Shown here in pieces: positions 1 through 4,227 of a stretch of DNA of 4,227 bases. The notes below the pieces were generated by a model. It was given only the letters and a program-made list of their open reading frames with translations. It did no database searches and was not told the DNA's origin. Where the stretch lies: the IMG/VR virus record IMGVR_UViG_2554235189_000008; one strand, given 5' to 3'. Source of the stretch: a virus (Duplodnaviria; Heunggongvirae; Uroviricota; Caudoviricetes). Numbering within the stretch: position 1 is the first letter of the stretch; each line of letters starts with the position of its first letter. A program made the translations under genes and the position numbers.

Positions 1-19
1 GGATTCCCGGGGCGGTTCA
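1..19 (-). mobile_element. Terminal inverted repeat (left end) of an IS3-family insertion sequence, IS629/IS1203-like; the element body lies outside the window to the left
   Basis: Reverse complement of 1-19 is TGAACCGCCCCGGGAATCC, an 18/20 inverted match to 4168-4187. It starts with TG as IS3-family termini do, and the lambda-like O reading frame breaks exactly at 19/20. The IS629 name is from memory. Confidence 0.6.
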
Positions 20-223
20 GTCCATTGGTTTATTCCACCCATAGGTTTTACGCAGAATGGCAAGCAGCACTTTAAACTGTCGCTTGGTCAGATCTGCGCC
101 TGAATAAGCCTCAATCAGCATATTTGATAGTCTGGCGTAACCATCATCGAGATCTGCCACATTACGCTCCTGTTCGGCAAAGTTACCTCTGCCGAAGTTG
201 AGTATTTTTGCTGTATTTGTCAT
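17..223 (-). pseudogene. O: Replication initiator O, N-terminal 68 codons only, truncated by the IS insertion
   Basis: Translation MTNTAKILNFGRGNFAEQERNVADLDDGYARLSNMLIEAYSGADLTKRQFKVLLAILRKTYGWNKPMD matches my memory of the lambda O N-terminus almost residue for residue. The in-frame stop (revcomp of 17-19) is supplied by the IS terminus TGA. No ori or O C-terminal domain is present. Confidence 0.8.
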
Positions 224-226
224 AAT
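198..226 (+). promoter_or_regulatory. PO-like promoter for oop RNA (-35 TTGAGT 198-203, 17-nt spacer, -10 CATAAT 221-226)
   Basis: Sigma70-like hexamers with 17-nt spacing just upstream of the oop-like transcript, antisense inside the 5' end of O as in lambda. Confidence 0.4.
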
Positions 227-233
227 GACTCCT

Positions 234-309
234 GTGGATTGATCCAGTAATTCCCTCAGAATTCCATCTGGATTTGTTCAGAACGCTCGGTTGCCGCCGG
301 GCGTTTTTT
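234..309 (+). ncRNA. oop: oop-like antisense RNA (antisense to the 3' end of cII)
   Basis: Plus-strand sequence GATCCAGTAAT...CCATCTGGATTTGTTCAGAACGCTCGGTTGCCGCCGGGCGTTTTTTATT is close to the lambda oop/t0 region as I recall it. It ends in a GC-rich hairpin plus T6 and lies in the cII-O junction overlapping the cII 3' end. Confidence 0.55.
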
Positions 310-552
310 ATTGGTGATTCCATCAAGCGCATACTTAAAAGCCCTGCTAATCGGACTGATGTCTGATGCCATTCCGAAAGCACACAGGACCGAAGCAATA
401 AACCGCCAGTCCGTTCTGCTTATCTTCGATTCATGACAGCCAATCATCTTTGCCAGACCGCGCTGGGTAAGCGTTGACAGGTTGATGAGTAAATCAGTTT
501 CAGCGCGATCAATTTCTCGCTGTGATAGTTTGCTGTAACTTGTTTGTTCCAT
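256..552 (-). CDS. cII: cII-like transcriptional activator (mosaic: C-terminus matches lambda cII, N-terminal two-thirds diverged)
   Basis: 98-aa ORF. C-terminal ...TNKKRPAATERSEQIQMEF is identical to the lambda cII C-terminus as I recall it. Position between cro and O is syntenic with lambda. Confidence 0.85.
   Translation of the reverse strand: MEQTSYSKLSQREIDRAETDLLINLSTLTQRGLAKMIGCHESKISRTDWRFIASVLCAFGMASDISPISRAFKYALDGITNKKRPAATERSEQIQMEF
284..309 (+). terminator. Rho-independent terminator (oop terminator, lambda t0-like)
   Basis: Stem CGCTCGG (284-290) / CCGGGCG (297-303) with one G-U pair, loop TTGCCG, followed by TTTTTT (304-309). Confidence 0.7.
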
Positions 553-562
553 TTCTTAAGAT
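530..562 (+). promoter_or_regulatory. Possible PRE-like cII-activated promoter (TTGC-N6-TTGT at 530-543, -10-like TAAGAT at 556-561)
   Basis: TTGC N6 TTGT resembles the lambda cII recognition repeat TTGC-N6-TTGC flanking a -35. It sits at the cII 5' end and is oriented toward cro/cI as PRE is in lambda. Weak. Confidence 0.3.
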
Positions 563-637
563 TTCCAATAGTGAATAGCTAGTTGAAAGGTATGCGTGGA
601 AACGCATATGGCCTTAGTTGGTCAGATATATTGGGAC

Positions 638-652
638 TCGCTTTGTCAGCGA
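638..652 (-). promoter_or_regulatory. nutR boxB-like RNA hairpin (minus-strand transcript 5'-UCGCU GACAA AGCGA-3')
   Basis: 5-bp stem with pentaloop GACAA, between cro and cII on the PR transcript. The 13-nt core CGCTGACAAAGCG is identical to the hairpin upstream of N at 3594-3606. Confidence 0.45.
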
Positions 653-690
653 CGTAGGACGAATGTCCATTGTGAAAATAGCGGTGTTAC

Positions 691-924
691 TTATGCAGCC
701 GATGCTCTACGCGATACGAACACTAGGTTTTCCTTTTTCACAGGTTTATAACCCGTGAAATTACGAGTAGCTTCTTCGATTGCATTCGCTTTATCAGGGG
801 AAGCTCTTCGAAATCCATATGCAATCTGGTCAAGATAGCCAACTGAAGTTTTCGCTAATGCGGCGAGTCGCTTCCATTCCTCACTAGAAGCCTCTTTTCG
901 CCAGCGTAGTAGTTCATTACTCAT
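691..924 (-). CDS. cro: Cro-like HTH repressor, divergent from cI
   Basis: 77-aa ORF transcribed divergently from cI across the operator region. SD GGAGG (revcomp of 931-935) lies 6 nt before the ATG. Probable HTH in ...TSVGYLDQIAYGFRRASPDKANAIEEAT... Confidence 0.75.
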   Translation of the reverse strand: MSNELLRWRKEASSEEWKRLAALAKTSVGYLDQIAYGFRRASPDKANAIEEATRNFTGYKPVKKENLVFVSRRASAA

Positions 925-935
925 TAGTGCCTCCG

Positions 936-1019
936 TTTATCACACAGAACAACTTTACCATTTTGATAAATCAACCGCAATGTAAATTTATCATATTGCG
1001 TATTTATCCATTTGCTAAA
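936..1019. promoter_or_regulatory. OR operator region: four 17-bp sites built on TTTATC-N5-GATAAA half-sites (936-952, 954-970, 987-1003, 1003-1019)
   Basis: Read directly: TTTATCACACAGAACAA, TTTACCATTTTGATAAA, TTTATCATATTGCGTAT, TTTATCCATTTGCTAAA at roughly 17-bp periodicity between the divergent cro and cI starts. Confidence 0.6.
952..980 (-). promoter_or_regulatory. PR-like promoter toward cro (-35 TTGCGG = revcomp 975-980, 17-nt spacer, -10 TAAAGT = revcomp 952-957)
   Basis: Sigma70-like hexamers with 17-bp spacing on the minus strand, overlapping operator sites 936-952 and 954-970, about 25 nt upstream of the cro SD. Confidence 0.45.
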
Positions 1020-1037
1020 TAGAGGGAAAATTGTGAG

Positions 1038-1742
1038 ATGGAAAACAAAGATATTCGCAAATCGAATCTGGCGTTTTTGCTAGATGAGCATAAAAAAATC
1101 GCGGGTAACACTAATGCAAGCTTTGCCGATAAGCTTGGGGTTAGCCCTTCTCAACTCACGCAAGTCTCCGGTGAAAAAAGCACTCGAAACATAGGGGATA
1201 AACTAGCAAGAAAATTTGAAGCCGCGCTTGGGTTACCTAATGGGTGGCTTGATTTGGTACATGATGTAACACCAATTGCATCATGCTCAGATTCTTTAAC
1301 TTTTGTCGGTCAGGTAAGAAAAGGGTTAGTGCGCGTGGTTGGTGAGGCAATTCTTGGTGTTGATGGTGCCATCGAGATGACCGAAGAGCGCGATGGGTGG
1401 CTCAAAATTTATAGCGATGATCCAGATGCCTTTGGTCTTCGTGTGAAAGGAGACAGCATGTGGCCCAGAATAAAATCAGGAGAATATGTACTCATTGAGC
1501 CTAACACCAAAGTATTCCCGGGTGATGAGGTGTTTGTCAGAACCGTTGAAGGACACAACATGATTAAGGTTCTTGGCTATGACAGAGATGGAGAATACCA
1601 ATTTACAAGCATTAACCAGGATCACAGGCCTATAACGTTGCCTTATCATCAAGTAGCAAAGGTGGAGTATGTAGCTGGTATTCTGAAGCAATCTCGCCAT
1701 CTGGATGACATCGAGGCAAGGGAGTGGCTGAAAAGTTCGTGA
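1038..1742 (+). CDS. cI: CI-type prophage repressor, N-terminal HTH plus C-terminal S24 (LexA-like) autopeptidase domain
   Basis: 234-aa ORF. HTH-like segment ASFADKLGVSPSQLTQVSG, and the S24 catalytic-serine motif GDSMWP with a downstream Lys (MIKVL). Divergent from cro across the operators. Confidence 0.9.
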   Translation: MENKDIRKSNLAFLLDEHKKIAGNTNASFADKLGVSPSQLTQVSGEKSTRNIGDKLARKFEAALGLPNGWLDLVHDVTPIASCSDSLTFVGQVRKGLVRVVGEAILGVDGAIEMTEERDGWLKIYSDDPDAFGLRVKGDSMWPRIKSGEYVLIEPNTKVFPGDEVFVRTVEGHNMIKVLGYDRDGEYQFTSINQDHRPITLPYHQVAKVEYVAGILKQSRHLDDIEAREWLKSS

Positions 1743-1802
1743 CTTCATCGTCACATAGCTGGTAACCAGTGGCCAGAAGAAACGTTTGGGTGAGGAGGAT
1801 AG

Positions 1803-2144
1803 ATGGCGTTCACTGACCTTGAATATCAAGCGGTCAAAAAAGAAGTTCACCAATTCATTGAAAGCATAAGGCCGCCTGAACATATCCGCAATGAACTGGA
1901 TATTGTTTATAGCATCAATGACCAAACGATAGATATCGGCGAACAGCGCCCCGTGTGGCAGGGCAACCCAGGTGAAACAAACATCCTGCCATCAGCAAGA
2001 ATCAAGTACATACGTTCTCTGGATAGATGGAAAATCTATTGGATGCGGAAGGATATGAAATGGCATCAGTACAGTACTGAACTTTCGCTGACTGATGCGC
2101 TTGAGCTTGTGCGTGCTGACCCGGATTGCTGCTTCTTCGGATGA
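1803..2144 (+). CDS. Hypothetical protein (113 aa), first gene of the cI-downstream accessory cassette
   Basis: Strong SD GAGGAGG (1792-1798) 4 nt before ATG 1803. Co-directional with cI, 60-bp gap after the cI stop. Trp-rich C-terminal half and a terminal DPDCCFFG. I cannot assign a family. Confidence 0.75.
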   Translation: MAFTDLEYQAVKKEVHQFIESIRPPEHIRNELDIVYSINDQTIDIGEQRPVWQGNPGETNILPSARIKYIRSLDRWKIYWMRKDMKWHQYSTELSLTDALELVRADPDCCFFG

Positions 2145-2214
2145 GTGAAGAGACGTTTGGATGATGGATGATCGCAGAGATGCTCGTAGAGCATACAGCG
2201 ATGCAGGAGAATTT

Positions 2215-2649
2215 ATGGCACTTAATTTAGAAAGAATATCTTTTATAACCCCATTTGATAGCAGCGAAGAACCCAACCAACCGACGCTTAATTTTACATG
2301 CAATGAATTTCCTGCGCGGCTATCAATTGATTTCAGGGTTGGTATGATCGGGTTGAAACCAAATTCAAGATATAATTTGGGTATTATGGTAATCCCCGCG
2401 CACCTAATTATAAAAAAAGGTGAGGAAATTCAATTCCCTGACGGCTCTTCGGAATCAGTTTCACTTTTCATCGATACGAAAGATAGCCATTTTGAAACAG
2501 GGGTTGGCGGACAGGTAATAGTAACATTGAAAGAAATTAGGGTCCCAGCTAAAGGGCTGTATAGTGTTATAGGGATATTGCAAGATAATGAAGACCCTAA
2601 AAATGAACTTCATAAAAATGAATCATTTTTCACCGTAGAGCTATTATGA
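2215..2649 (+). CDS. Hypothetical protein (144 aa from ATG 2215; the longest ORF starts at 2161 and gives 162 aa), second gene of the accessory cassette
   Basis: ATG 2215 is preceded by AGGAG (2205-2209) at 5-nt spacing; ATG 2161 has no good SD. The stop TGA (2647-2649) overlaps the next gene's ATG (2646-2648). No recognisable motif. Confidence 0.7.
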   Translation: MALNLERISFITPFDSSEEPNQPTLNFTCNEFPARLSIDFRVGMIGLKPNSRYNLGIMVIPAHLIIKKGEEIQFPDGSSESVSLFIDTKDSHFETGVGGQVIVTLKEIRVPAKGLYSVIGILQDNEDPKNELHKNESFFTVELL

Positions 2650-3266
2650 GTGACGACAGTAATTTAAATAATCATGGAAAGCAAGACACCAACATATCTG
2701 AAAGCCGGAGGTTGAAGGTTGTTGGCGGTTCCGATTTTGAGGCTGAATTTGATAATTCTCCCACCAAGGTGCAAAATAATTACATAAAACCGCCACAAAC
2801 GGAGGAAGAAGTGGGAACGATCAGCAGAGAGGAACTTGATGCTCGCTTAGCTGCTAATAAAGCAGAGATGGAGTCTATTGCTTCTTCCATTAGGGCTGAC
2901 ATGGCTCTATCTCGTGAAAGCGTTAATGTCCAATTTGCATCACTTAATGCAGCCATAAGCTCTCTATCGTCCAAGATCGATGGAAAGATGGATAGCGCTG
3001 CTGGCGATATAAAAGCAATTAATGGGAGATTCGAAGGAATTCAAGGACAAATAACAGGGGTTAATACCGCAATTAGTGGTGTTCAGTCGGGTATTTCTAT
3101 ACGATTAGCCATTTTTAGTGTCATTATCGCTGTAATAGTTGCGATTCCCGGGCTGGTATCAGCTTTAAAGTCAGACCACGCACCTTTGCAACAGCCTTCC
3201 ACTTTGCAAGCGCCGCCACAAAATACCCAGCCAACAGACAACAAAAAAACCACTCCCCAGCATTAA
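2646..3266 (+). CDS. Hypothetical membrane-anchored protein (206 aa): N-terminal soluble region with predicted coiled-coil character, one C-terminal TM helix, Pro/Gln-rich tail
   Basis: Single hydrophobic stretch IRLAIFSVIIAVIVAIPGLVSAL (about residues 152-173, nt ~3100-3165). Preceding Ala/Ser/Ile-rich heptad-like sequence. ATGA start/stop overlap with the upstream gene. Confidence 0.75.
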   Translation: MSDDSNLNNHGKQDTNISESRRLKVVGGSDFEAEFDNSPTKVQNNYIKPPQTEEEVGTISREELDARLAANKAEMESIASSIRADMALSRESVNVQFASLNAAISSLSSKIDGKMDSAAGDIKAINGRFEGIQGQITGVNTAISGVQSGISIRLAIFSVIIAVIVAIPGLVSALKSDHAPLQQPSTLQAPPQNTQPTDNKKTTPQH

Positions 3267-3272
3267 CGCATT

Positions 3273-3300
3273 AACCCGGCCTCAGCGCCGGGTTTTCTTT
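3273..3300 (+). terminator. Rho-independent terminator ending the cI/accessory operon
   Basis: AACCCGGC (3273-3280), loop CTCAGC, GCCGGGTT (3287-3294), then TTTTCTTT through 3300. It starts 7 nt after the stop of the last cassette gene. Confidence 0.7.
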
Positions 3301-3404
3301 GCCTCACGATCCCCACACCTAAAAACACATAACCAATTGTATTTGTTGAAAAATAAATAGATACAACTTGCTAAACAACGCAATCCAGATCTCCCTCAAA
3401 TCTC

Positions 3405-3530
3405 TTTATTTATCCTGTCGAATTCCTACAACAAAATAAAACACCATAAGAATCAATACGATATTTGAAAACCAAGAGAATTTATCATTTTGCTATTGCC
3501 ATTAATTTATCATTCCGATAAAGTTCACCC
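3405..3530 (+). promoter_or_regulatory. OL/PL-like region: TTTATC operator sites (3409-3414; 17-mers 3481-3497 and 3506-3522) and PL-like promoter (-35 TTGCCA 3496-3501, 17-nt spacer, -10 TAAAGT 3519-3524)
   Basis: Site 3506-3522 TTTATCATTCCGATAAA is a perfect inverted repeat of the half-site seen in OR and overlaps the -10. The same -10 hexamer TAAAGT is used by the PR candidate. Confidence 0.45.
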
Positions 3531-3592
3531 ATCAGCAGGACGCACTACTCACCAGGGCGGTGAATATACAACGATTCGAATATGAATCTACG

Positions 3593-3607
3593 GCGCTGAC
3601 AAAGCGC
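3593..3607 (+). promoter_or_regulatory. nutL boxB-like RNA hairpin (5'-GCGCU GACAA AGCGC-3')
   Basis: 5-bp stem plus GACAA pentaloop about 60 nt downstream of the PL candidate and upstream of N. Core identical to the nutR candidate at 639-651. Confidence 0.45.
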
Positions 3608-3618
3608 AATAACCAAAG

Positions 3619-3759
3619 TGAACTTTGGGGTGTGGTGAAGGGTTCATGGACGGGAATATGTCGCACGTAAAGCGGCGAGGCCTGTAGGACTATTGCCGAA
3701 TTGAAGTAGGCCGAAACAGGTCGAAATGGGTCTCCCACCTACCACACCACCAAAGTTCA
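3619..3759 (+). ncRNA. Structured leader element upstream of N: 18-bp long-range stem (3619-3636 with 3741-3759, one bulged A at 3749) enclosing about 104 nt
   Basis: Revcomp of 3619-3628 (TGAACTTTGG) equals 3750-3759 (CCAAAGTTCA); revcomp of 3629-3635 (GGTGTGG) equals 3742-3748 (CCACACC). The 3' arm ends 3 nt before the N SD AGGAGG (3762-3767). Confidence 0.45.
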
Positions 3760-3772
3760 TCAGGAGGTCTAT

Positions 3773-4156
3773 ATGACACGCAGAACTCAGTTCAAAGGCA
3801 ATTCACATTCTCGTCGTCGTGAGCGTTTAAAGGCAAAGGCATTAGCTAACGGCGTGCTGGCCCGCGAAGAAGCAATAAGTTCAGAAGTATTACACCGCCC
3901 TACTCTAAGCAGAGCGCAGATTCAGGCTAAAGGTACTCACGAAACGCCTGAGCGCATAGAAGACGCTAAGCCAATTAAGTTCATGGCACAGGACGTGATC
4001 TGGCAGCAGAAAGAATACAGACGCAATCTGGAGCGAGCGGCCATTGTGTACGCGAATGAGTTTGGACATAAGCAACCAGAAACTGGTGTATGTCTTCCAA
4101 ACGTAGCCATTTACGCTGCAGGCTACCGGAAATCCAAACAACTGACAGCAAGATAA
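3773..4156 (+). CDS. N: N-like transcription antitermination protein (127 aa)
   Basis: N-terminal arginine-rich motif GNSHSRRRERLKAKALANG resembles the lambda N ARM (QTRRRERRAEKQAQW). Position downstream of OL/PL and a boxB hairpin. SD AGGAGG 5 nt before the ATG. From memory the sequence resembles N of H-19B/933W-type phages. Confidence 0.75.
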   Translation: MTRRTQFKGNSHSRRRERLKAKALANGVLAREEAISSEVLHRPTLSRAQIQAKGTHETPERIEDAKPIKFMAQDVIWQQKEYRRNLERAAIVYANEFGHKQPETGVCLPNVAIYAAGYRKSKQLTAR

Positions 4157-4168
4157 CTTGTGTTGGTC

Positions 4169-4227
4169 TGAACCGCCCCGGGTTTCCTGGAGAGTGTTTT
4201 ATCTGTGAACTCAGGCTGCCAGATCAT
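4169..4227 (-). mobile_element. Right end of an IS3-family insertion sequence (IS629/IS1203-like): terminal inverted repeat plus the last codons of its transposase on the minus strand; the element continues beyond the window
   Basis: 4169-4193 TGAACCGCCCCGGGTTTCCTGGAGA is the inverted partner of 1-19. The minus strand reads ...GAT GAT CTG GCA GCC TGA (stop = revcomp of 4211-4213), matching my recollection of the IS629 orfB 3' end. Confidence 0.65.

Follow-up and report, generated by a model that had tools for sequence, protein, structure and literature searches.

Two IS629-group elements probably inserted separately at matching GTC triplets on either side of the immunity region of a defective Escherichia coli lambdoid prophage

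How does a phage immunity region come to lie between two ends of the same kind of insertion sequence (IS), with the same three bases next to each end? The question is raised by a stretch of 4,227 nt filed in IMG/VR as a virus of the class Caudoviricetes (record IMGVR_UViG_2554235189_000008; "the window" below means this whole stretch), in which the immunity region of a lambdoid prophage is bracketed by outward-facing ends of an IS629-like element of the IS3 family. A first-pass annotation, made from the sequence without database searches, had pointed out that GTC abuts each IS terminus, which is indeed what positions 20 to 22 and 4166 to 4168 read. It had also suggested that the two triplets might be one 3-bp target duplication, with the segment joined into a circle or amplified in tandem through a single IS copy. 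We favor another account, to which we give a probability of roughly 0.75: two IS629-group elements inserted separately into a defective E. coli lambdoid prophage, the window is a contig with boundaries set by the assembly, and the match between the triplets is coincidental. The argument turns on five features at the two ends (slashes mark the borders of a triplet or of an IS here and below).

1 to 19, minus strand: terminus with the left inverted repeat (IRL) of an IS629-group element (IS3 family), the IS body lying to the left of the window; 19/19 identical to the 1310-bp copies at loci L003 and L135.
17 to 223, minus strand: truncated replication gene O (O'), 68 codons followed by a TGA that comes from the IS; from the list of open reading frames (ORFs) and Pfam PF04492.
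20 to 22, no strand: GTC next to the left IS end; native to O, where it forms codon 68 (GAC when read on the minus strand); relatives with an intact O read TTCT/GTC/CATT.
4166 to 4168, no strand: GTC abutting the right IS end; native, 10 to 12 nt after the N stop codon; relatives read GTTG/GTC/GCCAG.
4169 to 4227, minus strand: terminus with the right inverted repeat (IRR) of an IS629-group element, 59 nt, the IS body lying to the right of the window; 59/59 identical to L003 12060 to 12118 and to the O157 copy at L135.

The identity of the ends follows from full-length copies. Positions 1 to 19 of the window (GGATTCCCGGGGCGGTTCA; the IRL end reads TGAACCGCCCCGGGAATCC on the other strand) equal, in window orientation, the final 19 nt of an IS3-family element of 1310 bp from E. 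coli JNE132847 (L003, 12060 to 13369), and positions 4169 to 4227 equal the first 59 nt of the same element, with the IRR end TGAACCGCCCCGGGTTTCC... RefSeq describes this element as "IS3 family transposase, programmed frameshift," and reference copies with identical ends are annotated likewise. The first-pass annotation had already taken both window ends for outward-facing termini of one IS629-like IS and had named ends matching no IS as the observation that would count against it; the ends match a full-length IS629-group element. Its coordinates for the left terminus (1 to 19) stand, while the right terminus, which it had placed at 4169 to 4193, runs on to 4227 and is 59 rather than 25 nt long. 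With IRL on the left and IRR on the right, the two copies are directly oriented, and the bodies of both fall outside the window. The termini carry imperfect terminal inverted repeats (5'-TG...CA-3'), as in the IS3 family, which match the full-length element, and together the window ends form a 24-nt inverted repeat (I2; 1 to 24 and 4164 to 4187) with 88% complementarity. This repeat reaches into the flanks: both IS ends abut TGG(A/T)C, the flank read towards the IS being TGGAC at the left and TGGTC at the right.

The E. coli O157:H7 copy, annotated as "IS3-like element IS1203 family," shares only 94.9% identity with the JNE132847 copy over its whole length, yet the two agree fully in their terminal 19 and 59 nt, so the isoform (IS629, IS1203, or IS3411) is not fixed by the window, and "IS629 group" is the finest label that the window supports. 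More generally, among copies with 94.9 to 96.6% identity to each other, the terminal 19 and 59 nt are either unchanged or differ at a single nt; a divergence of 4 to 5% between IS629 subtypes is reported (PMC3271280). Literature matches to the 13-nt IS629 terminus TGAACCGCCCCGG came only from two papers on IS6110 of Mycobacterium.

At the left end, the IS splits O behind codon 68 and, with its three outermost bases, provides the TGA stop of O'. The nearest relatives have an intact O of 312 aa. The truncated product matches PF04492 over profile positions 2 to 48 of 95 only, so that half of the N-terminal DNA-binding domain is kept, and the ori iterons (O nt 348 to 470 of the intact allele) lie on the far side of the IS. 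Judging by what is left of the gene, O/P-dependent (lambda-type) replication is predicted to be lost from this copy and the prophage to be replication-defective, as the first-pass annotation had proposed from the cut after codon 68.

The origin of the two triplets can be read from relatives without the insertions. Ten complete genomes carry the DNA of positions 16 to 4168 uninterrupted, at 97 to 99.9% identity (three of them at 99.6 to 99.9%), and have GTC at both sites: the left site reads GGTGATTCT/GTC/CATTGG and the right site TGTGTTG/GTC/GCCAGAAA. Each GTC is therefore native target sequence, and the two lie 4.15 kb apart. It follows that a single duplication would need O codon 68 to have been joined beforehand to the N-downstream site, exactly at the triplet (3-bp microhomology), and then an IS to land exactly on that joint. 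The restored IS-less joint (..TGTGTTGGTC-CATTGGTTT..) is present in 0 of the 5,426 complete E. coli genomes searched, and removing the IS and one repeat thus does not yield a contiguous sequence that exists elsewhere.

These results bear directly on the proposal that there is one IS copy, with the 4.15-kb segment and the IS forming a circle or a tandem array and the GTCs being the IS's own target duplication. Such a structure would explain why the triplets are identical in the sense expected of one duplication and why IRL and IRR are correctly oriented relative to each other and both fit one isoform. Besides the native position of both triplets and the absence of the joint, however, the two junctions are met separately in other genomes. 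An outer junction with GTC exists at the right site (L134, described below), and a 99.9% identical relative (L006, GCA_050225675.1), with 4 mismatches in the 4,149 nt compared over the same 4.15 kb, has an empty right site. IS3-family elements also move as the IS alone, via an IS circle. We consider a circle or tandem array improbable in the extreme. A one-IS circle produced by recombination of the flanking copies would not explain the GTC match either, because it would merely inherit the inner flanks.

How surprising is it, then, that two separate insertions share a triplet? IS629-type ends collected from IMG/VR (loci L014 to L133) gave 156 distinct junctions, from which the probability of a shared same-sense triplet at two flanks is 0.020, or 1 in 49, close to the chance of about 1 in 64 given by the first-pass annotation. 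Both window sites have GAC as their triplet when read in the direction of the IS; GAC occurs at 2 of the 156 flanks and its complement GTC at 7. No flank position carries more than 0.21 bit, a very low information content, and IS629 has no strong preference for GTC. The match is best explained as a coincidence (about 2%), at most aided by a weak target bias. A target preference as the explanation of the GTC was rejected in view of the broad triplet spectrum and the weak flank matrix. The same junctions show a weak positional bias towards C, which is found in 47% at the fifth base outward from the IS end and in 38% at the base adjoining that end.

If IS629 instead preferred both sites, the O site being a hot spot, the shared triplet would reflect sequence-directed targeting. 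The weak flank matrix places the O site at the 96th and the N-downstream site at the 81st percentile of the region, GTC and GAC together account for 9 of the 156 flanks where about 5 are expected, and TGG(A/T)C abuts both IS ends. Both sites, however, carry the disfavored T at position -5, in the flank inside the window, and the flanks hold the little information given above. The same O position is occupied in two Logan contigs with other immunity regions, in which an IS629-type end directly follows the same GAC. One (L012, 4611 to 4638) has the IRL variant CCGGAAATCC at O codon 68; the other (L013, 4423 to 4448) has IRR there, that is, the opposite IS orientation, and hence represents an independent event. 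O codon 68 may thus be a recurrent IS629 target, but the look-up by the exact 68-aa O' product can return same-site events only, and partial O products are just as frequent at many other lengths. Complete genomes hold approximately 1,800 copies of this O allele, none with an IS at this site, although IS copies do sit elsewhere in or near O in those genomes. An earlier survey of IS629 in O157 likewise found no target consensus (PMC3271280). Taken as a whole, targeting of both sites seems very improbable to us.

Since none of the contigs returned for the O' product extends past the junction, the O-site contigs from the protein-to-contig index represent fragmented draft assemblies. Contig ends in O, many of them at GGAC or GGACAG, were rejected as hot-spot evidence because the look-up selects them and other O lengths are as frequent; in two scaffolds, assembly gaps (runs of the letter N) over the ori-iteron region explain the ends in O. 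A mosaic boundary in O at nt 206 was ruled out, with 1,336 records aligning straight across.

The right IS end lies 12 bp after the stop codon of the antiterminator gene N. In complete genomes, the inner junction at this site was found only in JNE132847, where it is identical (118/118 nt) but stands next to a different immunity region; IMG/VR, metagenome, and GTDB contigs did not contain it. On the other side of the JNE132847 IS (L003, 12060 to 13400), the adjoining triplet is CCC, not GTC, so that this copy has no duplication, and the DNA after the IS matches the prophage of strain ESDR8 at a place 4.07 kb farther on. An IS-adjacent deletion has removed cIII-exo (cIII, kil, gam, bet, and exo) in JNE132847. 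The outer junction at the same site was found once, in IMG/VR contig 2554235189_000011 (L134), as IS-IRL/GTC/GCCAGAAAATG. A simple insertion that duplicated GTC at this site would produce both the inner junction of JNE132847 and the outer junction of L134.

Other IS629-group copies occur close by in the same prophage lineage. The prophages of ESDR8 and 14EC001 are 99.9% identical to the window; ESDR8 has a copy between orf206 and oL (window 3328 to 3330; L001, 9316 to 10625) with a CAT duplication, and 14EC001 has one 361 bp beyond the N-downstream site (L002, 10514 to 11823) with an ATA duplication. This makes four different insertion points within approximately 5 kb in one prophage lineage.

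Why the window stops within both IS copies is suggested by other contigs. Among the first 120 IMG/VR stretches, 7 other whole contigs of 4.7 to 11.7 kb are bracketed by outward-facing IS629 ends, with IS overhangs of 25 to 124 nt per side; none of the 7 has equal inner triplets at its two ends. This layout is the usual outcome when a multicopy IS collapses in short-read assembly, and the window is very probably a whole short-read contig that ends where the assembler met a multicopy IS. An assembly boundary was among the options listed by the first-pass annotation, and it fits these contigs. No plasmid or phage record had the IS-bracketed structure of the window.

The favored account of two separate insertions can be put as follows. 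IS3-family elements transpose by a copy-out-paste-in pathway. Two IS629-group copies would have inserted separately in this manner at two native GTC sites 4.15 kb apart, one splitting O after codon 68 and the other landing 12 bp past the N stop codon, and the window would be the unique DNA that two IS629-group copies in direct orientation enclose. Simple insertions would give the outer junctions ..GGTGATTCTGTC/IS at the left and IS/GTCGCCAGAAAATG.. at the right. Written out, these would be ..GAGAATCGGTGATTCTGTC/TGAACCGCCCCGGG.. and ..CCCGGGGCGGTTCA/GTCGCCAGAAAATGAAATT..., or, in short form, ..TTCTGTC/TGAACC.. and ..GGTTCA/GTCGCCAG... We infer that the source genome would hold two IS copies at normal copy number, each keeping its own outer GTC.

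Several observations weigh against this account. The coincidence of 1 in 49 is still a coincidence, the IS overhangs of the window are unequal (19 versus 59 nt), and the window shows only the inner flanks of both IS copies. The left junction is found in 0 of the 5,426 complete genomes and in no IMG/VR, metagenome, or GTDB contig, and no complete genome has a contiguous match to either outer junction. The outer-left junction of a simple insertion, in which the 3' part of O (..TTCTGTC) would meet the IS, is absent from IMG/VR as well. Moreover, about half of all IS629 copies lack a duplication, so either copy may mark a rearrangement breakpoint: 13 of the 27 full copies in IMG/VR keep a 3-bp duplication and 14 do not, and in O157, duplications of 3 to 4 bp were reported at 21 of 47 sites but not at the other 26 (PMC3271280). 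With two IS copies of which one or both mark breakpoints, left by an adjacent deletion or by recombination between IS629 copies, the GTC match would still be a coincidence. The IS copies would then have no matching duplications of their own, and some of the prophage beyond the window would have been lost or relocated. JNE132847 offers a precedent, since its IS at the identical N-downstream junction is followed by CCC and the 4.07-kb deletion. However, the outer-right junction with GTC does exist (L134), and the missing outer-left junction is weak evidence because the inner-left junction is equally rare. We regard breakpoints at one or both junctions, the main alternative, as unlikely and hold to two simple insertions.

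Between the IS ends, the window contains a complete lambdoid immunity region, laid out in the reverse of the usual lambda map, with the following features in addition to O'.

198 to 307, plus strand: putative oop-like antisense unit, placed by its position from consensus scans only.
256 to 552, minus strand: cII; Pfam PF05269, E value of 6.6e-35.
639 to 657, minus strand: nutR-like box between cro and cII; inverted copy of 3588 to 3606.
691 to 924, minus strand: gene in the cro position, 77 aa, from the ORF list; annotated as cro in related Shiga toxin (Stx) phages.
951 to 999, no strand: oR operator/promoter region between cro and cI; repeats I1, I16, and D7 in common with 3479 to 3525.
1038 to 1742, plus strand: cI repressor, 234 aa, with a LexA-like S24 peptidase domain; Pfam PF00717, RefSeq "LexA family transcriptional regulator."
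1803 to 2144, plus strand: DUF3024 gene, cargo in the rex position; Pfam PF11225 (2.4e-31) and PADLOC PDC-S43 (7.2e-42).
2161 to 2649, plus strand: orf162, from the ORF list.
2646 to 3266, plus strand: orf206, from the ORF list.
3479 to 3525, no strand: oL operator region; repeats I1 and D7 shared with oR, and a promoter-like site at 3496 to 3524.
3588 to 3606, plus strand: nutL-like box; inverted repeat I3 with 639 to 657.
3773 to 4156, plus strand: antiterminator N, intact, 127 aa; Pfam PF25694.

The minus strand thus holds O', cII, and the gene in the cro position, and the plus strand holds cI, three cargo ORFs, and N. Pfam matches identify O, CII, the S24-type repressor, DUF3024, and the N peptide; the gene in the cro position has no Pfam match. 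The hallmarks of a lambdoid immunity region are present, namely, a cI unit divergent from cro-cII-O together with an N unit, paired operators, and nut sites. The operator-like and nut-like pairs lie where oR/oL and nutR/nutL should be, and the nutR-like and nutL-like boxes form a 19-nt inverted repeat (I3) with 95% complementarity. The window is collinear with Stx phage and prophage annotations, and the closest public sequences are E. coli prophages and Stx1a and Stx2a phages. At positions 472, 951, and 976, the window differs from both of its nearest relatives, 14EC001 and L006; the differences at 951 (A for G) and 976 (C for T) fall in the oR operator/promoter repeats between cro and cI.

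The putative oop-like unit consists of a promoter-like site at 198 to 226, with an extended -10 TG, and a strong terminator-like hairpin followed by a T-run at 280 to 307, and it is antisense to the start of O and the 3' end of cII. The oop RNA of lambda occupies this position. An Rfam search across the window returned no credible RNA family, including no match for this unit.

The DUF3024 gene, located just downstream of cI, where lambda has rexAB, matches the PADLOC candidate defense model PDC-S43 from end to end. Its neighbor orf162 had no Pfam or PADLOC match, and nothing scored above threshold for orf206, for which the Pfam match was sub-threshold only. When the slot between cI and N (window 1750 to 3300) was compared with loci L004 to L013 and with hits H14 to H40, the cargo varied among otherwise related prophages: the alternatives were a Ser/Thr kinase, a RuvC-family protein, a HigB-like toxin with two ORFs, SieB, and a 332-aa ORF. 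DUF3024 is often kept beside cI in related prophages. The slot looks like a typical variable moron or defense slot.

With cI, N, and the cargo genes that lie between them all intact, the host probably keeps superinfection immunity and whatever benefit the cargo provides, with a prophage predicted to be unable to replicate. The window adds one example of the inactivation of a lambdoid prophage by the IS629 group (O::IS629). The direct IS repeat would also make the immunity module deletable or amplifiable by homologous recombination, a routine consequence: a 5.46-kb circle bearing one IS would come out of recombination between the direct copies. If real, the circle or tandem array of the single-IS proposal would mean an IS3-family element acting like an IS26-type translocatable unit that carries phage immunity, the unit consisting of cI, N, the PDC-S43 candidate defense gene, O', and a single IS629. 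IS3-family elements are not known to form translocatable units. The case also holds a caution, as the same IS at both ends of a contig, even with matching triplets, is no evidence for a circle, an amplification, or a compound transposon.

Several known systems can be set beside the window. The termini are identical to those of full copies of the IS629/IS1203/IS3411 group (IS3 family, 1310 bp; Shigella sonnei and E. coli) with an orfA/orfB programmed frameshift, neighboring copies have 3-bp duplications, and the known preference for prophages is common to both (PMC3271280); the window differs in holding just 19 and 59 nt of the elements. In O157, 62% of IS629 sites lie in prophages or prophage-like elements (PMC3271280). 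In lambdoid prophages of enterohemorrhagic E. coli (EHEC), such as the Sp prophages of O157 Sakai and the Stx2a phages PA2 and PA8, an IS629-type element likewise interrupts early-region genes (PMC3271280, PMC10810198), and the closest phage records, those of Stx1a and Stx2a phages, have the same N, cII, and O modules as the window. Unlike the EHEC cases, the window has no stx, and its pair of sites (O codon 68 and 12 bp past the N stop codon) occurs in no complete genome searched. IS-bounded short-read contigs end, as the window does, tens of bases inside a multicopy IS on both sides, but in none of the seven examples is the inner triplet the same at both ends, as it is here. A compound transposon or an IS26-type translocatable unit likewise has a segment between two directly oriented copies of one IS, whereas the segment in the window is collinear with the native prophage, which argues against relocation. 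IS629 insertions in EHEC-related prophages and IS-bounded contigs are already well documented, and what is new in the pair of sites described here is the allele rather than the type of phenomenon.

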